Assembly: GCA_030037895.1 (NCBI GenBank)
Contig: JASHPW010000075.1
Coordinates: forward strand, 5,899-69,898
Length of the DNA stretch: 64,000 bases
Direction: 5' to 3'
Source: Xanthobacteraceae bacterium
GTDB taxonomy: Bacteria > Pseudomonadota > Alphaproteobacteria > Rhizobiales > Xanthobacteraceae
Shown in pieces: positions 4,571-27,100 of the stretch. The position numbers and the translations under genes are program-made. Within the stretch, counting starts at the first letter, position 1, and every line of letters starts with the position of its first letter. The notes beneath the pieces were generated by a model that worked only from the letters and a program-made list of their open reading frames with translations, was not told the origin of the DNA and ran no database searches.

Positions 4571-4718
4571 TTACCGGGAAGCATCTCGAAAACGTTGCGG
4601 CCTTTTCCCGCCTGAACGTGGGCGGAAGAAGCGGAATTGACCAGTGGCATGAATGACAGTTATCATAAAAATCGTGACAAACGACGTCGACCGACAACGG
4701 CTGAGACGACCGCGCAAC

Positions 4719-5654
4719 ATGACGGTTGCGGTCCTTGCTTATAATGGCGTCAACGCATTCGAACTCGGCATGGCCGTCGAGGTGTTTGGTCTGCCGAATA
4801 TGGGTCGAGACTGGTACCGCGTCGTCGTCTGCTCGGATGCGCCAAGGAAGCAGCGGGCTGCCAGCCACGGCATCAAAATCGTCGCTGACGCCGGATTGTC
4901 GTTTCTTGACCGTGCGGGAACGATCATCGTTCCGGGCTGGCAGGACATTGATGCAGCGCCGCCGGTTGCGCTTCTCGCTGCGCTTCGACGCGCGCACGCA
5001 CGCGGCGCCCGTATTGCATCGATCTGTTCCGGCATCTTTGTAGTGGCGGCCGCCGGACTGCTCGTCGGTCGGCACGTCGCCGTCCACTGGGCCAGCGCGG
5101 AAGCGCTTGCGCGCAAATATCCTTTGTTGCGCGTAGATGAAAACGTTTTGTACGTAGACGACGGAGACATCATGAGTTCGGCGGGACGGGCTGCCGGGCT
5201 TGATCTATGCATCCACATTGTCCGGCGCGATTTCGGACCAGAAATTGCCAATGTTGTGGCCCGCCGCTTGGTGATTCCGTCGCACCGTGAGGGCGGACAG
5301 GCACAATTCATTCCACGTCCGGTGTTGGCCGAAGGCGATTCGCTCGGTAAATTGCGAGATTGGATTCGGGGCCATCTCGAAGAAAAACTGACCATCGCAC
5401 ACTTGGCCGCGAAATCTCGGATGAGTCGACGGACATTTATTCGGCGCTTCGAGGAGGCAACTGGAGTTTCGCCGGGCAAATGGGTTCTGCGTGAGCGCAC
5501 CGCACAGGCGCGTAACCTGTTGGAGGCGACAGCTATGTCAATCGAGCAGGTGGCTGTGGCAGTCGGCTTCGGATCGGCGGACGCATTGCGCCACCACTTC
5601 CGCACGCGGTTTAAAACCAGTCCGTTGCGGTACCGGTTGGGATTTCGCGCATAG
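4719..5654 (+). CDS. GlxA-type transcriptional regulator (DJ-1/PfpI-like domain + AraC HTH)
   Basis: The N-terminus reads MTVAVLAYNGVNAFELGMAVEVFG...ICSGIFVVAAAGLL (class I glutamine amidotransferase-like fold). The C-terminus carries an AraC HTH, SRRTFIRRFEEATGVSPGKWVLRERTAQARNLLE...FGSADALRHHFRTRFKTSP. The start is set at the ATG at 4719. Confidence 0.8.
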   Translation: MTVAVLAYNGVNAFELGMAVEVFGLPNMGRDWYRVVVCSDAPRKQRAASHGIKIVADAGLSFLDRAGTIIVPGWQDIDAAPPVALLAALRRAHARGARIASICSGIFVVAAAGLLVGRHVAVHWASAEALARKYPLLRVDENVLYVDDGDIMSSAGRAAGLDLCIHIVRRDFGPEIANVVARRLVIPSHREGGQAQFIPRPVLAEGDSLGKLRDWIRGHLEEKLTIAHLAAKSRMSRRTFIRRFEEATGVSPGKWVLRERTAQARNLLEATAMSIEQVAVAVGFGSADALRHHFRTRFKTSPLRYRLGFRA

Positions 5655-5981
5655 CTATTACCTCATTCGCCGACAAGACTGCAGTCCGATAATTTGGCAT
5701 CCAAGCCGCAGCGCTTCGAAAAATCCAATCCGTCCGCGTATGGTGCAACCATCGATATCGTCGTCGGGAGAGCATAAACAGGAGGTAGAGGGCCGCTCGG
5801 CGTTGAATCTTAATCCGGAAGAAATAATTCCGGATCATTGTGAAGCGGCGTGTCTGGACCCCGCGATCGTGTGTGCGCGCCTGGTCGAGACACCGGCTCG
5901 GCAAGCCAAAAGGAAACGAGTGGAAGGCCCGAGAGGGTCCGTCGAGCCGTACCGTAAAAACAACTTGCGGTAAAAATCGCC

Positions 5982-19480: not shown

Positions 19481-20776
19481 TCAAAGACGCCACAGCTCGA
19501 TCCCCGGCGGACAGTTGCTCCTGTCCAGTTTTGCCTTGACGTCGAGAACGGCGCCGGCGCCATTTTGCAGAAGATTGGTGATCAGCGGCCAGCCTTCGTC
19601 GACGAAGGATTGGTGAGGAACAGCAAAAATTACCGCTTGCGCCGGCTGCAGCGCACGGCGCGGCAACAGTTCGATCCCGTGTTCGGCCTGGGCTTGCTCG
19701 CGATCGGCCACCGGATCGTGCACCTGCACCGGAATACCGAAACTCCGCAGTTCGCGGATAATTTCGGCCACCCTGGTGTTGCGGATGTCGGGGACGTTCT
19801 CCTTGAACGCCAGCCCGAGGATCGTGACCCGGGTATTCTCGTCGTTCCGCCTCCCATTGTTCCTGATCAGCATGCGGATGCACTGGTGCGCCACGCGGGT
19901 GCCCGTCGAGTCGTTCATGTGGCGGCCGGCAAGAATGACCTGCGGATGATAGCCGCAGCGTTCTGCCCGATGAGTGAGATAATAAGGGTCGACCCCGATG
20001 CAGTGGCCGCCAACCAGGCCCGGCGTGAACCTGAGAAAATTCCACTTGGTTGCCGCCGCCTCCAGCACGTCGCTGGTATCGATGCCAAGCTCGTGGAAGA
20101 TGGCCGACAGCTCGTTCATCAGGGCGATGTTGAGATCGCGCTGAGTGTTTTCGATGACTTTGGCGGCCTCCGCCGTCTCGATGTTGGCGGCGCGGTAGAC
20201 GCCCGCGGTGACCACTGAACCATAGACTTTAGCCACCACATCAAGTGTCGTTTCATCTTGCGCGGCAACAACTTTCCGAATCGTTTCGAACCGATGCTGC
20301 GCGTCACCCGGATTGATGCGCTCGGGCGAATAGCCGACGGTAAAATCAGAGCCGCAGGCAAGTCCCGAGGCTCGTTCGAGGACTGGGACACATTCCTCTT
20401 GGGTTGCACCCGGATACACCGTCGATTCGTAGACGACGATGTCTCCCCGCTTGAGCGCCGTGCCGACCGTTTGCGAGGCGGAAAGCAGGGCGCGAAGATC
20501 GGGACGGCGCGCCTCGTCTATCGGCGTCGGCACGGTCACAATGAAGAAGTCGGCCGCCCGCAGGTCGCCCGGATCATCGGTGATGTGGAGTTCCGAACGT
20601 CGAAGGTCGTCTGCGGCAACCTCACGGGTGCGGTCATGGCCGCTCCGCAATTCCCGGACGCGGCGGGAATTGATGTCGAACGCCACGACGGGGTGGCCGC
20701 GGCGGGAAAATGCGGTTGCAACCGGCAATCCAACATAGCCCAATCCAATGACCGCAATCTTTCGATCATAGGTCAT
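19481..20776 (-). CDS. UDP-HexNAc 6-dehydrogenase (TviB/WbpO-type nucleotide-sugar dehydrogenase)
   Basis: [23 protein letters not shown] is followed by [15 protein letters not shown] (catalytic Cys) and [16 protein letters not shown]. The start is set at ATG 20776. Confidence 0.85.
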
Positions 20777-21096: not shown

Positions 21097-21104
21097 CTTG
21101 CGGT
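21097..21104. repeat. Left copy of the 8-bp target-site duplication CTTGCGGT
   Basis: An identical 8-mer directly flanks both terminal inverted repeats (21097-21104 and 24098-24105). Confidence 0.85.
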
Positions 21105-21123
21105 GGTAGTGGTACAGTTTGAA
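21105..21123 (+). repeat. Terminal inverted repeat (left) of the IS1-family transposon
   Basis: GGTAGTGGTACAGTTTGAA matches the reverse complement of 24079-24097 at 19 of 19 positions. Confidence 0.9.
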
Positions 21124-21124
21124 C

Positions 21125-21454
21125 CTACCGCGTGCGGATTATGGCGATCTCACCGCGAACTTGGTCTAGCATTTTGGCGTAAAGCTTCTGTCCCTCTTCG
21201 TCGATAACATCGCGCATTCCAGGGTGTTCAGCGATCAGTGGCTGCTCAATGAAGCCGAGAAAATCGCAACGCGTCAAAACCGCGCGTGCGGCCGTATCCA
21301 AGTCCACGGATTTGGGGGCAACAGCTATTTCCTCTCGCACAAGGCAATCGTTCATGGTTTTACGCGCGGTGTCTTGCTGCGCTTTGTCAGCTTGCGAGTG
21401 CGAAGCACACCCAGCGAGTGCGAGGATTAACAAATATACGGTGGCTTGGCGCAC
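21125..21454 (-). CDS. Small putative lipoprotein (transposon passenger)
   Basis: The GTG at 21454 lies 6 nt downstream of a GGAGG. The N-terminus (V)RQATVYLLILALAGCAS is a signal peptide with a lipobox. This is the 3' part of track ORF 21125..21808. Confidence 0.45.
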   Translation of the reverse strand: MRQATVYLLILALAGCASHSQADKAQQDTARKTMNDCLVREEIAVAPKSVDLDTAARAVLTRCDFLGFIEQPLIAEHPGMRDVIDEEGQKLYAKMLDQVRGEIAIIRTR

Positions 21455-21483
21455 ATTCAGCCTCCAAGTTAACTGAGTCCCTT

Positions 21484-22359
21484 CTAAGCGGCAGCGGACA
21501 CCCGTATTGCTTCCCAGTCTTCGAGTACCTTTACCATATCGACCATTTCCCAAAGCTTCGACGTGACACCCGCCGCCATCGCTGGCGTAATCTTCAAGGT
21601 TTGATGGATGCGAACGAAATTGTAGTGCATGAAATAGATTGCCATCATATGCGCGTGGTTTTCTGCCTTCTTTGAGAATGCATTGGTGAGCCGCGTCATG
21701 CGACGATTGCCCATCCTGATATTCAGATTTTGTCGTTCCGCGTAGCTGGTCGAAACGTGCTTGGGATCGGGATTGCCTTCGACGCGATGTTTTACCGCAC
21801 CGATGCATTCTGTCGGGCTATAACGTCCTTGACCTTCCGGAGCGGGCCCGTACACCTTGACCAGCATCGCATAGTCAATATCCGAGCCGAACGCGCCCTC
21901 GACCGCTTCAAGATAAGCTTTGTGACCGTCGCTCGTTAGCTGCACGCGGTTAGCGAGTCGCTTGGCGAGATCATCCATGAAAATCATTGCCGCATTGCTG
22001 TCGCGGCCTCCAACATACCAAGAGACAGCGAGCTTGCTTTGGGCGTCTAGTCCAACCCACGTCCAAATGTCGCCTGCGCCTTTCGGGGCGGCTTTCACGG
22101 TTGGCACGTTCTTTTGTTTTGCGTAGCAAAACGCCCACGCCTCATCAACTTGGATGCGTTTGCACCGCAGGTTTATGAGCGTGCGGTCTTGGTATTCGGA
22201 AAATGCCTGTCCGGCATCCTCTAAAAGTTTTTGCAGCGTGGTCCGGCTAATGCCGGTCAACCGAGTGATGGCCCGCAGGGAGATGCCCTCAGCCATCATT
22301 TGAAGGACTTGGACACGCTTTACGGACGGAAGCTTGTTCATAGGCATGATAATATACAC
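21484..22359 (-). CDS. IS1-family DDE transposase (single ORF)
   Basis: 291 aa. The N-terminal HTH reads LRAITRLTGISRTTLQKLL. The DDE region includes VDEAWAF and TSDGHKAY. The IS1-type C-terminal signature is YAERQNLNIRMGNRRMTRLTNAFSKK...HMMAIYFMHYNF (compare IS1 InsB [25 protein letters not shown]). Confidence 0.85.
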   Translation of the reverse strand: MYIIMPMNKLPSVKRVQVLQMMAEGISLRAITRLTGISRTTLQKLLEDAGQAFSEYQDRTLINLRCKRIQVDEAWAFCYAKQKNVPTVKAAPKGAGDIWTWVGLDAQSKLAVSWYVGGRDSNAAMIFMDDLAKRLANRVQLTSDGHKAYLEAVEGAFGSDIDYAMLVKVYGPAPEGQGRYSPTECIGAVKHRVEGNPDPKHVSTSYAERQNLNIRMGNRRMTRLTNAFSKKAENHAHMMAIYFMHYNFVRIHQTLKITPAMAAGVTSKLWEMVDMVKVLEDWEAIRVSAAA

Positions 22360-22426
22360 TCATGCAAGAGCGGTCAAGCATAACATGATAGTTTAGACGT
22401 GCTTCCCGGTTTCGATCCGATCATTG

Positions 22427-22462
22427 GCGTAACCGGGATACACACTTGCGTAACCGGGATAC
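22427..22462 (+). promoter_or_regulatory. Two perfect 15-bp direct repeats GCGTAACCGGGATAC, 21 bp apart start to start; candidate operator in the divergent promoter region
   Basis: The copies lie at 22427-22441 and 22448-22462, between the transposase start (22359, minus strand) and the RHH-like gene start (22498, plus strand). Confidence 0.45.
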
Positions 22463-22497
22463 GCGTACTATGTTGTTGGAGCAAAACGGAGTCCACC

Positions 22498-22842
22498 ATG
22501 AAAGCCGCACGCAACCGGGTCGAAAAGTATCGGAAGGAAGGTGGGGCAGCCGGTCTCATTCGGGTGGAGGTGCTTATCCCGCCCATGGCCCGTGGTGAGA
22601 TCGTGGCCCATGCTTCGCGCCTCCGCGCAGCACATCGCAACGACAAAGAGCTGTGGTCCCTCTACGACAACACACTCCGGTCCTACGGCCCGCGCATCCT
22701 TGATAACGTTGATCTCGACCGGCTCCCCGATCAAAGATCGCGTGCCGCTGTGGTTGCCCGCGCGATAATTGATCGTGGCGATGCCCGTGCATTTGCCATA
22801 GGCCGGGAAATGCTCGACCGCGTAGCAGCAGTTCCAGTGTAA
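22498..22842 (+). CDS. Small RHH-like protein, candidate antitoxin/regulator partner of the downstream nucleotidyltransferase
   Basis: The ATG at 22498 follows a GGAG with 7-nt spacing. The N-terminus KYRKEGGAAGLIRVEVLIPPMARGEIVAHASRLRAAH has a strand-helix pattern typical of ribbon-helix-helix proteins. Its stop lies 1 nt before the next ATG. Confidence 0.4.
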   Translation: MKAARNRVEKYRKEGGAAGLIRVEVLIPPMARGEIVAHASRLRAAHRNDKELWSLYDNTLRSYGPRILDNVDLDRLPDQRSRAAVVARAIIDRGDARAFAIGREMLDRVAAVPV

Positions 22843-22843
22843 G

Positions 22844-23665
22844 ATGGCTTTAACGAATCTCCAAAGCGGAATCCTTCGCACACTCGCCAAGAATCGCTCG
22901 GAAACGAGCTACTTGGCGGGAGGGCTGATGCTCAATAAAAACTGGCACAGGCGTTCCGATGACATCGACATCTTCCATGACACCGACGAGGAAGTAACAG
23001 GGACTGCAAAAGCCGACCTCGCTACACTGAAGTCCGCAAGCTACAAGGCCGAAACGGATTTCATCACTTACGGCGCCGTAGAAGCTACCGTTTCCGACGG
23101 AAGCTCATCAACGATTATACAATGGGCCGCTGACACAAAGCGCCGCTTCTTTCCCCTTGTGAAGGATGAAGAATGGGGTTCTCGTCTTCATCAGGCAGAC
23201 CTTGCAGTCAATAAGGTACTGGCCGCTGCTGGACGCTCTAAAGCCCGCGATATAGCCGATCTGGTCGCCATCGGAGCTAATTATTGCCCACTTGGTCCGC
23301 TAATCTTAGCCGCCGCCGGCAAACCACCGAACTTTTCGCCACGGAGGACAATCGACGAGATACGTCGCCATGCGTTCTCAATTCCTGCAGAAGAATTCAC
23401 AGCAGTGAAGGGACTGCCTTCTAATTGGTCGCCCGAGTTCATACGCGACGAAACAAACCGACTCCTCAATTCCGCGGACCAATACATCATGAATGTTTCT
23501 ATAGACCTTGTTGGTGTTCTTGTGGTGGACAAAAAGGGCGTTCCAACAGAGCAATCAGATGCCAACCGCAATGATGTCAAACTAAGGAAAGCGACAGAAG
23601 AACCCGAGGTAATGCCCGATCCCGTGGAATTCAACGCGGTAGGCTGGGACCCCTCTCATCCCTGA
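22844..23665 (+). CDS. AbiEii/AbiGii-like nucleotidyltransferase (type IV toxin family, DUF1814-like)
   Basis: YLAGGLMLNKNWHRRSDDIDIFHD matches the GG...R.S.DiD.F nucleotidyltransferase motif. KVLAAAGRSKARDIADL matches the K..A...R...RD..DL motif of AbiEii. Confidence 0.55.
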   Translation: MALTNLQSGILRTLAKNRSETSYLAGGLMLNKNWHRRSDDIDIFHDTDEEVTGTAKADLATLKSASYKAETDFITYGAVEATVSDGSSSTIIQWAADTKRRFFPLVKDEEWGSRLHQADLAVNKVLAAAGRSKARDIADLVAIGANYCPLGPLILAAAGKPPNFSPRRTIDEIRRHAFSIPAEEFTAVKGLPSNWSPEFIRDETNRLLNSADQYIMNVSIDLVGVLVVDKKGVPTEQSDANRNDVKLRKATEEPEVMPDPVEFNAVGWDPSHP

Positions 23666-23783
23666 GTACATCCGCCACGCGACCCTATGCCGCTTGAAGG
23701 CGCGCCAATTCGGTCTCGAATTCGAACCGCAATCGCGCCCCGTCCTCGTGCGGCAGCCTATTTTGCCCACTTCATAATTCCGT

Positions 23784-24035
23784 TTATTTGCTCCAGCGGG
23801 CCTTGGCCGCCTTACGGGCTATATCGGCACGCTGTGCCGCTGACATTTTGTCAGCTCTCGCCCTGCCGCCCTTCAAGCCGCCTTTACGGCCCAAGGCGAC
23901 GGCAGCTTGATCCTTGTTAAAGTCCTTAGAGGGAAGCGGCGCACGATCTTCAACTTGGCCGGTCAAAATATCGCCGATCAGCTTGCTTAGCTGTACGGGA
24001 TCGCGGGGGCGGGGAAGGCGCTTTGCTGTCATCGT
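23784..24035 (-). CDS. Small basic protein with a KGG-like motif (transposon passenger), function unknown
   Basis: MTAKRLPRPRDPVQLSKLIGDILTG...ALGRKGGLKGGRARADKMSAAQRADIARKAAKARWSK. The start is set at ATG 24035. The gene lies wholly inside the transposon. Confidence 0.4.
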   Translation of the reverse strand, partial: TMTAKRLPRPRDPVQLSKLIGDILTGQVEDRAPLPSKDFNKDQAAVALGRKGGLKGGRARADKMSAAQRADIARKAAKARWSK

Positions 24036-24078
24036 GGCAGTATGCCATCGGGCAACATAGGACGCCACCGGGCAGAAT

Positions 24079-24097
24079 TTCAAACTGTACCACTACC
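24079..24097 (-). repeat. Terminal inverted repeat (right) of the IS1-family transposon
   Basis: TTCAAACTGTACCACTACC is the exact reverse complement of 21105-21123. Confidence 0.9.
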
Positions 24098-24105
24098 CTT
24101 GCGGT
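24098..24105. repeat. Right copy of the 8-bp target-site duplication CTTGCGGT
   Basis: Identical to 21097-21104. Confidence 0.85.
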
Positions 24106-24169
24106 TTGTCGGTTGAGCCTGGGCCGATCACACGATATAAAGCGCATTCTCATTGTCCGACAACTCCGG

Positions 24170-27100
24170 ATGGACGGACAGGGGCAAGATACCTGCAGAT
24201 GGCGCCTTGGCTTGGCCGACGTAAGAATCGGCCAAAGATGGAACACCGCCCTTATGCCGCTCGTCGCCCTTGAGATTTTGCCGCAGCCCCACGAATGGCG
24301 AGCGTATGGCGGAACGTGGCGGGGCAACGTTTTCGAGGTCGATCCCGCACTCGTCGCGATCGATTTCAACGAGCCGCTGCTGGTATCACCTGATTTTGCT
24401 CTCAAGGCTGGCCAGTTCATGACCTTTACATTCTCGGCGTATTTCGGCGGCGGCGCTGCTTATTGCCTGCACATCGTCGAGGGTTCCCGCAACCGCCGCG
24501 TCCATAGCCGTCTGTTCGAGGCCATGGACGGCGACGCCCGACTGTCGCTTGCCTTCCGCGCCAGAAAGTCGGGCTCTTACCGGCTGGTTCTGGAGCACTA
24601 CGGACGTCCGAGGCGGAGCAAGCCGACCATCACGGCGCCGTCGGTCTCGGTGCAGGCCGTCGGCGCCGGCGCCGTCCGCAAGGGCCGGCTTGCCGAACTC
24701 AGCGTGGTCGCGGAGGAAAGCGATGACGCTCGCTATCTGCCACATTGGAACCCGATCCAGCGCCTCATTCACCGTCGCTGCCGTGCGTCGCGGGCGTTCA
24801 ACAATATCGTGGCGGCCATCGAGATGCGGCTTGGTCGCGAAGAGCTTCTCAGCCTCCCGCAGTACATGGGCCTTTGCCCGACGGGACAGTGCAATGCGCT
24901 GTGCGATTTCTGCTCGGTCACCATCAACCGCACCGGAATCATCAAGAAGCAATTGCCGTATGACCGCTTGGAAAACTTTTTGGCGCCGGTTACGAATACC
25001 ATACAAATGTATGGGATCGAGGGCAACGGCGAGCCGACGCTGTACACGCGTTTCCCCGAGTTGGTCGAAAGGCTCACGCGCGGGGGCGCCAGGGCCTATC
25101 TCATCACCAACGGCTCCCGGCTGCAGGTCGGCGACGTGCCGCTGCTGCTGACGCTCGCCTCGGTCAGTTTTTCTCTCAACGCCGCCACGGCCGAGACGCA
25201 TCGTTTGATCATGAAGCTGAAAAACTTTGAGGAGATCGGCGAAATCATCCGCGCGCTCGCCCGCGACCGTGGCCGCCCGGATGCTGCTTTGGATAAGGTA
25301 CCGAGCATCTATGTCTCCTTCGTCGTGACCAACGATAATGTCCACGAAGTACAAGACTTCCTGCGTTTTGCTGACCAGGACCTCGGGGTCGATGTCGTTC
25401 TCGTGCGGCCGTTGGCCGAGCTTGGCAACGATTTGGGAACGGTCGAGGACGTGCGTCATATCGTGCCATATGAAAGCGACGTCAGGGACATGACCGAGGC
25501 GGTGCGCGAATACATGCACGACGTTCCCGGAAACGCCGAAATTCGCATCGCACCCGAGACGTTTCGCTCCGTCCGTCCCGATCCGGTGGGACATGTCGTC
25601 ATGCCGCGCGGCTTCGAGGGGCGGCTCCTCGCCCCGCGTCGCGACGATTGGGAGGCGCTGCATCCGGGCGTCGTCGCTGTCTGGCATCTCAACAGCGCGT
25701 GCCTCGTATTTCCGGCCGTCGATGGCGAACTCCTGCGCTCGCAGCCCGTTCCTGTCGAGCCGGAACGCGAGCTGCAATTCAAGGCCCAAATCGCCGTATC
25801 GGGAGAGCCGGTGCGGCTGCTGATCGAAGATGGCGAGCACATGATTGTAGCGGAAGCCGTGCTCGCCGATACCGGCGGCCGGACCATTCCCCTCGAGCTG
25901 AAAATTCAGACCCGCCGCGCGAGCGCGCTCTCGTTCGTGCTTGCAGGTCACGGCCGTGCCGCGCGGTTGGATATCGATTTCGAGCGCCTGCGCACGCCGG
26001 CGCCTTACGTGAGCAGGGAATTTTGCATCCCGCCCAGCAGGCGATGGGAGGTCTGCGTTCCGGGCGCGGACGTGGAGTGGAGCGACGACGTCCTGCGGCT
26101 GCGATCGGCCACGGGCGGAGGGCCCTACCTGCTGAAAAGCTACAGCGTGCCTTGCGCCCGCGACAGCACGATCGAGCTTCCGGTCGAGGTGGACGTGCGC
26201 GAAGGGATGATCGACATCGGAGTTCTCGACCAGGCGGGCGCGTATTTGCAGACTTTCCAATTCGCGTCCGGCCATGCCGCTTCCCGCGTGTTCTTCAATA
26301 CCGGCGGCAATGACGGCGTACAGTTGGTCCTTTCCGCCCCCCCAAATCAGCCGCTCGATGCGGCCATCCGCTGGCTCAAGCCCCGGCTGATCGTGGAGGG
26401 CGACGAAGAGCTTCCGATCCGGCTGCCGAATGCGCCGGAATGGGCGGCCTGTGTGCCGGATTTGCAGATCGATCGACGCGCGGATGGCGTATCTCTGTCG
26501 TGGCAAGGCGAGGGCAGTCCGTACCTGCTCAAGAGCAACAAGGTCCGTTGCCGTCCTGGTCGCGCGACCAACGCGCATGTCCTCGTTCGAGTGGAGGCCG
26601 GCCGTTTATGCCTCGGCGTTCTGGACGGCACCGGCGCGAGGTGGTTGAGAACCGAAACAGTGCGCGAGGGCACGCATCAGGTCCAACTCGACTTCGACGC
26701 CGACGGGAGTGACGGGGTGTTCTTCGTGTTATCCGCGGTCGAAGGCGTCCCGGTGACGGCAAGCATCGACCTCTCGAATAACGGCCTTCTGCGGGGCGTC
26801 CCGGACGCGAAATCGGGCGATCGAGAGTCCCTGCCGGTTCTCGCGCTGGCGGAGGCTGCGGTGCGAAGCGCATCCGATGCGCCGGTAAGGACGATCGATA
26901 GGCGGCCGCCCACGGCCCCGGTGTCGCTCGCGGTTCCGCCCCGAAGGGAAGAGGCGAGCCCGCAGCTTCGGAATGGTCCCGCCGAAGGAGACGCGGCGAT
27001 CAAGACGCCGCCTGGATTCCCGTTGGCACCCGAAGTTCCCTTCTCTCCCGGCGGGCCGGACGGTGCACCGGAACGGATGCCGGCTGCCGCCGCGCAAACC

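Follow-up and report, generated by a model that had tools for sequence, protein, structure and literature searches.

Structure of the element

The stretch analysed here (the window) comprises 64,000 nucleotides of contig JASHPW010000075.1 from a Xanthobacteraceae bacterium (assembly GCA_030037895.1). In the region between a UDP-sugar dehydrogenase gene and a divergently transcribed radical SAM/SPASM gene it contains an insertion sequence (IS) that carries further genes besides that of its transposase. We consider it very probable that this element is an intact copy of a transporter IS (tIS), from a distant branch of IS1 in which the transposase is encoded by a single open reading frame (ORF). 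Its parts are given below in order of position, where slots A and B are the two places that hold cargo, IRL and IRR are the left and right inverted repeats, TSD is the target-site duplication and HTH stands for helix-turn-helix.

21097-21104, no strand: left copy of the TSD, CTTGCGGT, identical to 24098-24105 and abutting the inverted repeat
21105-21123, minus strand: IRR, downstream of the transposase gene, GGTAGTGGTACAGTTTGAA when read inward; family consensus GGTAGTGgtaCAGTTTGAa
21125-21454, minus strand: slot B, ORF of a 109-aa putative lipoprotein with a GTG start and the lipobox LALAGC; called as a gene at locus L081
21484-22341, minus strand: single-ORF IS1-family DDE transposase with an N-terminal HTH and D66/D138/E202, assigned by homology and hhalign
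22342-22407, minus strand: transposase promoter/operator block, from the promoter scan; conserved in most of 57 related elements
22422-22462, plus strand: slot A, tandem operator-like repeats, GCGTAACCGGGATAC twice, 21 bp apart; also present at L084 and L092
22498-22842, plus strand: slot A gene 1, 114-aa partner, putative antitoxin or regulator, always paired with the 273-aa gene
22844-23665, plus strand: slot A gene 2, 273-aa AbiEii/MenT-like nucleotidyltransferase with a GG...DDIDIF motif and a near-threshold Pfam match
23784-24032, minus strand: core gene for an 82-aa basic three-helix protein, found in 53 of 59 elements
24033-24083, minus strand: promoter region of the small gene, from IRL to its ATG, with a conserved TGG-CATACT, whose -10-like hexamer lies at 24039-24044
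24079-24097, minus strand: IRL, upstream of the small gene and the transposase gene, 19/19 with IRR
24098-24105, no strand: right copy of the TSD, CTTGCGGT, identical to the left copy
24113-24141, plus strand: native DNA outside the element, σ70-like TTGAGC-17-TATAAA, read directly as a consensus match only

The two inverted repeats are exact reverse complements of each other over all 19 positions, the 8-bp direct repeat stands directly outside both of them, and 2,993 bp lie between their outer edges. In the window, sequences within three mismatches of the 19-mer occurred in two places only, with none expected in shuffled sequence. The 8-mer alone was not rare (three copies against 2.3 expected), and the chance of its identity at two fixed flanking positions is 4^-8, approximately 1.5e-5. 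Both ends read GGTAGTG, fitting the GGnnnTG rule of the IS1 family, and the GC content of the element is 0.52-0.58, compared with 0.60-0.66 in the flanks. No Rfam family was found between 20500 and 24600.

An initial annotation, made from the letters of the window, had proposed these repeats with their coordinates, the GGnnnTG ends, five ORFs and the presence of passenger genes inside the element. On re-inspection the repeats were reproduced at the same positions (19/19 and 8/8), the ends followed the rule on both sides, the five ORFs were all present, and the module of slot A and the lipoprotein gene of slot B were found to lie within the bounds set by the inverted repeats and the TSD.

Transposase and family assignment

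The transposase is approximately 285 aa long when read from a conserved MNKL start; the public gene call begins at 22347. Among IS models in NCBIfam, IS1 gave the best match (52 bits, E 7e-14, against a curated cut-off of 100 bits), and the Pfam model DDE_Tnp_IS1 matched the C-terminus at 20.7 bits, against a cut-off of 24.1. BLASTP against InsB of Escherichia coli aligned residues 200-239 at 38% identity, which is the ER-N-L-N-R...FSK block, and the C-terminal signature TxxERxNLNxRxxxxRxxRxxxxFSKxxExH is shared by both proteins. When a 17-member family profile was compared with InsB by hhalign, the match (93.9%, E 1.5e-7) extended over the whole catalytic core, with D66, D138 and E202 paired with the DDE residues of InsB and approximately 39 aa of extra sequence between the second D and the E. 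The N-terminus matched HTH models in Pfam, not a zinc finger. More than 8,000 database proteins are homologous to the transposase, the best 120 at 84-94% identity; for these, NCBI and JGI give the name 'IS1 family transposase', and PGAP uses the same name for homologues on the plasmids of cultured strains. The best NCBIfam model, the signature shared with InsB and the aligned DDE triad bear out the assignment to IS1 that had been made initially.

As all IS1 matches to hidden Markov models (HMMs) fall below the curated cut-offs, membership of IS1 holds at the level of a distant subgroup. Classical IS1 elements measure approximately 0.74-1.2 kb and have a -1 programmed frameshift between insA and insB. 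This arrangement is absent from the window copy, which therefore belongs to a distant, single-ORF branch. A single ORF and a length of 2,993 bp are compatible only with the non-classical IS1 subgroups that have a single ORF or carry passengers, such as the single-ORF and 'ISMhu11' subgroups of ISfinder, in which elements reach approximately 4.6 kb and carry passenger genes.

By homology, transposition would follow an IS1-like mechanism. The transposase would recognise the element by its GGTAGTG...CAGTTTGAA ends, and cutting of the target with an 8-bp stagger would give rise to the duplication of CTTGCGGT.

Related insertions and cargo turnover

A scan of a genome collection for relatives gave 80 loci (L001-L080), among which 57 distinct insertions carry both inverted repeats, 52 of them with a perfect 8-bp TSD. 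Their inverted-repeat consensus is GGTAGTGgtaCAGTTTGAA, the GGTAGTG-type ends are conserved throughout, and their lengths range from 1,944 to 7,543 bp (median 3,194 bp, n=57). The hosts are metagenome-assembled genomes (MAGs) of Alphaproteobacteria, Acidobacteriota, Verrucomicrobiota, Nitrospirota and Actinomycetota, and two copies lie on plasmids of cultured strains, one in Mesorhizobium loti (TSD CGCTGGTG) and one in Acidiphilium multivorum (TSD AAGCCGAG). A megablast search of PLSDB with the whole element gave no match. With 57 insertions of 1.9-7.5 kb and 52 perfect TSDs, these ISs form a family that is mobile and carries cargo.

When the window copy was compared with the closest elements at the nucleotide level, backbone homology was seen in two stretches, 24097 to ~23785 and ~22407 to 21508, the second of which begins at the transposase promoter block. 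Because the homology is confined to these stretches, two cargo slots can be delimited, slot A at ~23784-22408 and slot B at ~21507-21124. By comparison of the 57 insertions, the backbone of approximately 1.2 kb runs in the order IRL, promoter and 82-aa gene, slot A, promoter/operator and transposase gene, slot B and IRR.

Cargo turns over extensively, as 175 candidate cargo ORFs of the family fell into 144 clusters, and cargo differs even between elements whose transposases are more than 90% identical. Proteins combining HTH_3 with Peptidase_M78 were found in approximately nine elements, and other annotated cargo includes STAND/AAA_16 NTPases, ClpP/SDH-type proteases, HicB, NYN, an MqsA-like HTH protein, a phosphoribosyltransferase, DUF6998, DUF1828 and an outer-membrane protein. 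A fusion of approximately 535 aa, consisting of an N6/N4 DNA methylase and an Mrr-type nuclease domain, is present at L004, L006, L015, L021, L033 and L044, in all six cases in slot B, directly 3' of the transposase gene and in the same orientation. A RES-Xre pair was considered as cargo of the Acidiphilium copy and rejected, as it lies outside IRR and the TSD.

The smallest elements (1.9-2.0 kb) keep a slot A ORF of 125-175 aa, whose product combines a coiled coil at the N-terminus with a winged-helix-like segment at the C-terminus (L010:358-735, L017:422-928, L024:392-916, L029:432-869 and L003:386-823). These proteins are very divergent; iterated HMM searches failed to merge them into one family, and hhalign between groups gave 90.7% for one pair and 21-32% for the others. 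This ORF may be a fast-evolving third core gene, which in the window copy would have been replaced by the nucleotidyltransferase module.

The 52 TSDs from L001-L080 have a weak symmetric S-R-N4-Y-S pattern, with G or C at position 1 in 43 and at position 8 in 41 of them, and their GC content is slightly under that of the flanks (0.555 compared with 0.598).

The conserved small gene

The 82-aa protein has the motif KRLxRPRDPxQLxKLIGDILTGQ ... GRKGGLKGGxARA...RxxIAxKAAxxRW. In tblastn searches with the five proteins of the window copy, its gene was found in 53 of 59 elements, 65-320 nt from IRL and on the transposase strand, and this constancy of position and strand marks it as a core gene and not as cargo. 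It is under purifying selection (median ratio of non-synonymous to synonymous substitution rates, dN/dS, of 0.27 over 430 pairs), and 4,471 homologous cluster representatives were found in a library of 1.8 billion proteins. IRL-like ends were likewise found immediately outside two distant homologues that had been chosen at random. An AlphaFold2 (AF2) model, predicted with the use of database representatives, consists of three helices (predicted local distance difference test, pLDDT, 83.6). There was no sequence match in Pfam, NCBIfam, PADLOC or PDB and no fold match; the sole match was that of PHROG 2384, of unknown function, to the C-terminal motif. Judging by its conservation, the small basic protein could play the role that InsA has in IS1.

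The initial annotation had counted this protein as cargo and called it KGG-like, neither of which can be kept: the gene belongs to the conserved core, and the KGG family PF10685 gave no match to the window protein and matched one of 29 family members at E 0.08. As a consequence, the four non-transposase cargo genes of that annotation are reduced to those of the lipoprotein and of the two slot A proteins of 114 and 273 aa, which makes three cargo genes in two slots. The small gene is uncalled in both public assemblies of the window's organism, and PGAP names a homologue on the Mesorhizobium loti plasmid CP050295.1 'histone H1' (L094:2075-2284).

Promoter and operator DNA of the core genes

Before the transposase gene, the promoter scan found TTGACC-17-TATTAT (10/12). 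The block in the window copy reads AAACTAT (AAACTGT in the family), ATGCTTGACC with the -35 hexamer, 17 nt and the -10 hexamer TATTAT, followed by the ATG 7 nt on. Its counterpart in the family, within the 70 nt before the transposase ATG, consists of AAACTGT, ~8 nt, ATGCTTGAC(C), 17 nt, CATTAT or TATTAT, 6-7 nt and the ATG, and palindromes lie over the -35 and around the -10. The AAACTGT upstream of the -35 resembles the inner part of the inverted repeat.

Before the small gene, the hexamer CATACT lies 6 nt from the ATG, within the palindrome-like ATGGCATACTGCCAC, and an alternative promoter, TTGAAA-18-TATGTT, starts inside IRL. Family-wide, TGG-CATAMT is found 5-7 nt before the small-gene ATG, inside palindromes of the GTGGCATACTGCCAC type. 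The palindromes that overlap the core promoters are GTGGCATACTGCCAC, GGCATGAT-N8-ATCATGCC and ATGCTTGAC..GTCAAGCAT.

No Shine-Dalgarno sequence precedes the ATG of either the transposase gene or the small gene. Together with a -10-like hexamer only 5-7 nt before the ATG, this suggests that the mRNAs of both core genes are probably leaderless. The palindromes over both core promoters suggest that these could be repressed by a DNA-binding protein encoded by the element itself, by analogy with InsA, which acts at IRL in IS1.

Cargo of the window copy

The three cargo genes were absent from all 58 other elements (tblastn). The pair in slot A is found, with its 1-nt spacing kept, at L084-L092, ordinary chromosomal sites without a transposase nearby. 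Window positions 22428-23658 have 73% nucleotide homology with the IS-free module loci (4655-5822 in each of L084-L092), where tandem GTAACCGGGAWAC repeats, present twice and 21 bp apart, are conserved upstream of the module. As the module occurs at IS-free sites with its own tandem repeat, slot A holds a captured, self-contained unit, which appears to be mobile in its own right and is probably autoregulated, to judge from its sequence. The isolated module was seen in at least two IS-free neighbourhoods, one with LysR/SLT-efp genes and one with PP-binding/beta-helix genes.

The 273-aa protein had been described as AbiEii-like, and several lines of evidence agree with this. The Pfam AbiEii model reached 21.0 bits over a stretch of 30 residues (cut-off 22.5), that of PADLOC gave a weak match (E 0.023), several homologues at 74-77% identity carry PF08843, and homologues on plasmids (54-55% identity) bear the annotation AbiEii/AbiGii toxin family. 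With its AF2 model as the query, the best Foldseek matches were JHP933 (E 3e-5, probability 1.0) and MenT4 (E 4e-3). The public gene call for this gene is 245 aa long and starts 28 codons later, truncating the GG motif; the 273-aa form is the right one, as most homologues are 273 aa long.

For the 114-aa partner, initially labelled RHH-like, there was no family or PDB match, only meaningless matches to designed proteins, and the label could not be verified. Most likely, as far as the sequences allow it to be inferred, the slot A module acts as a toxin-antitoxin (TA) or abortive-infection system that would also stabilise the element. The slot B lipoprotein gave only weak signal-peptide matches of the Lpp/RcsF kind and no informative homology.

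Interpretation

The genes unrelated to transposition lie between the inverted repeats and are moved with the element, which is what defines a tIS. Elements of this kind are already known, and the window copy is in itself an ordinary one. At the level of the family, we found no description of the conserved small protein, of the pair of cargo slots, of the leaderless-looking core genes or of cargo that is rich in defence and TA genes and is spread across phyla. It is possible, though at present rather a proposal than an expectation, that the window copy represents a very abundant, apparently undescribed clade of 'two-slot' cargo shuttles, related to IS1 and resident in bacteria of soil and peat. 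In such a clade, the backbone may be 75-94% conserved and the content of the two slots may change almost completely from one copy to the next, and the slots may carry TA modules (AbiEii-like, HicB, MqsA-like and XRE-M78), methylase-Mrr fusions, STAND NTPases and ClpP-like proteases in at least five phyla.

Several observations weigh against the main reading, that of an intact tIS from a distant branch of IS1. Every IS1 HMM match stays under its curated cut-off (52 against 100 bits and 20.7 against 24.1), and the element contains neither an InsA-like zinc finger nor a programmed frameshift. The nucleotidyltransferase fold matches of the 273-aa protein have TM-scores of 0.25-0.32 only, from a model with a pLDDT of 72. 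The roles given to the small protein, the palindromes and leaderless expression are drawn from conservation only. Finally, no empty site was found in metagenome contigs, and no second identical copy was found.

The family comparison indicates that a minimal DDE element moves small TA, restriction-modification and other defence-type genes between distant soil phyla. If the proposal of a two-slot clade is true, the small protein would represent a new type of accessory or regulatory factor of ISs, and the family would be a compact vector by which phyla exchange genes for defence and addiction. Should transposition be controlled by the small protein and the wide host range be explained by leaderless expression, this would provide a simple model of how ISs become gene vectors, and the family could serve as a compact, broad-host-range delivery chassis.

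Insertion site and neighbouring operons

The radical SAM/SPASM gene starts at 24254 with MPLVALE, in agreement with the public 1,133-aa gene call and with four homologues that begin MPLV..., and the start of the divergent UDP-sugar dehydrogenase gene is at 20776. If the element is taken out, 476 bp of intergenic DNA are left, with 320 bp on the side of the dehydrogenase gene and 148 bp on that of the radical SAM gene. The initial annotation had placed the insertion 65 bp upstream of a start at 24170; the arithmetic was right, but with the true start at 24254 the distance becomes 148 bp. The radical SAM frame is open upstream into the IS (TTG at 24023), and ORF lists accordingly give a 1,210-aa product that runs across IRL and the TSD. 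This product is an artefact and not a fusion protein.

The same annotation had suggested that expression of the glycan genes may now depend on read-out from the element. On this reading, the operon would have been cut off from its promoter and approximately 16 kb of genes would now be transcribed from inside the element. In its favour, the element does lie between the radical SAM operon and 320 bp of DNA that used to adjoin it upstream, the two genes of slot A (22498-23665, plus strand) are read in the direction of the operon, and a scan of the plus strand between 23665 and 24105 gave no strong terminator. We consider this reading unlikely. The 148 bp of native DNA retain a candidate promoter, TTGAGC-17-TATAAA, which begins 8 nt past the right TSD and ends 113 nt before the radical SAM ATG; it was not listed by the promoter scan because the last base of its -10 is A, where the scan requires T. 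No outward-facing σ70-like promoter was found in the element by the promoter scan, and at the end next to the operon the core gene (23784-24032) reads in the other direction, away from it. As the slot A module, the only one to point towards the operon, is convergent with the small gene, read-through from it would be antisense to a core gene. The dependence on read-out was therefore not upheld.

Age and activity of the insertion

The same insertion is present in two public assemblies. A Logan contig of SRR21679874 is 100% identical to the window over 15.1 kb, while contig JASIKW010000022.1 of GCA_030049465.1 (L082) ends inside the transposase gene (window 21994-22246). The 18 mismatches of L082 all lie in the last 260 bp of the contig end and its other 13.4 kb are identical, so this contig end appears to have been collapsed in the assembly with other, related copies of the IS from that community. 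The element accounts both for the 3-kb block of low GC content and for the contig break in the public MAG.

An exact scan of metagenome contigs for the empty site, the 22-mer CATAAGGCTTGCGGTTTGTCGG, gave no match. At only 64% identity, the nearest relatives of the radical SAM gene are too distant for their intergenic DNA to be comparable; their operons have other upstream genes and no 3-kb block. As neither an empty site nor a second identical copy was recovered, this particular copy is only putatively active.

These results also bear on the possibility that the element inserted long ago and is now immobile, a fixed fossil with domesticated genes. A single copy in the window (inverted repeats, up to three mismatches), an exact transposase on only one public contig, its presence in both public assemblies of the organism and the lack of an empty site in metagenome contigs are all in keeping with a fossil. 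Yet the inverted repeats and the TSD are identical at every position, the core ORFs are all full length with an intact DDE triad, both core promoter blocks are conserved, the GC content is below that of the host flanks, the nearest homologous operons lack such a block, and the contig break with its clustered mismatches hints at related copies in the community. An old insertion is accordingly improbable, and a recent one is plausible. For the intact tIS that we favour, this would mean a clean, probably recent insertion into the control region between the polysaccharide and sugar-nucleotide operons.

Comparison with known systems

Like that of IS1 (E. coli IS1A), the transposase is of the DDE type, with homologous D, D and E blocks and the ERxNLNxR...FSK signature. 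The ends of IS1A read GGTGATG and those of this element GGTAGTG, both fitting GGnnnTG, and the target duplication of 8 bp falls within the 8-9 bp of IS1. Both elements also have a small basic protein encoded at the left end, with an adjoining promoter that reaches into or abuts IRL, although the small protein described here is unrelated to InsA in sequence and has neither a zinc finger nor a Pfam match. IS1 is 768 bp long and without cargo, whereas this element has 2,993 bp with cargo; its transposase is encoded in a single ORF with its own promoter, in contrast to the -1 frameshift between insA and insB; and, unlike in IS1, between the small gene and that of the transposase there is a cargo slot of 0.6-2.5 kb. 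The IS1 single-ORF and ISMhu11 subgroups likewise have a single-ORF transposase, vary in length and carry passenger genes. The ISMhu11 subgroup is not known to have the conserved 82-aa gene or a layout with two slots, and a literature search returned nothing on ISMhu11 or on the clade of this element.

In the IS1595 family, the ISPna2 and ISNwi1 groups have 8-bp duplications, GG(C)nnTG-like ends and passenger-carrying derivatives, and the transposase is of the DDNK/DDE kind with an N-terminal zinc finger. That the window copy belongs to this family and not to IS1 is highly improbable, since the 8-bp TSD, the passenger genes typical of IS1595 tIS in ISfinder tables and a weak NCBIfam IS1595 match to transposase residues 4-147 (23 bits, E 5e-5, cut-off 75) stand against an IS1 model that is far ahead at 52 bits, a C-terminal block and an entire D-D-E core that align with InsB, a third catalytic residue that is E in an IS1-type motif and does not match the N...K/H signature of IS1595, an N-terminus with an HTH and no zinc finger, and GGTAGTG ends unlike GGC..TG.

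The tIS are an established class (PMC7986276, PMC9330008). Those of IS1595 (ISPna2+, ISNwi1+ and ISNha5) follow the same concept, with inverted repeats, an 8-bp TSD, one transposase and passengers; the transposase of the element described here is nearer to IS1 than to IS1595.

The slot A module can be compared with the AbiE/MenAT type IV TA systems. The 273-aa protein shares their GG...DxD nucleotidyltransferase motif, its model scores all being under the curated thresholds, and the module is likewise a two-gene operon with a small upstream partner, here with an operator-like repeat. Unlike in AbiE, the 114-aa partner has no similarity to AbiEi (COG5340-type winged helix).

Tn7-like transposons are described as carriers of diverse defence cargo (Benler et al. 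2021, PMC8649781). A conserved transposition core, highly variable cargo and nested mobile elements are common to them and to the present family, and in both the cargo is rich in restriction-modification, TA and NTPase genes. Their machinery comprises TnsABC and others, compared with one DDE protein in this family, which is also much smaller (2-7.5 kb) and has no target-site selector. Nested ISs within the cargo slots of the family were seen at L020:58-1314, L065:788-2098 and L003:2533-3366, with transposases of the IS256/Mutator and IS3/rve types.

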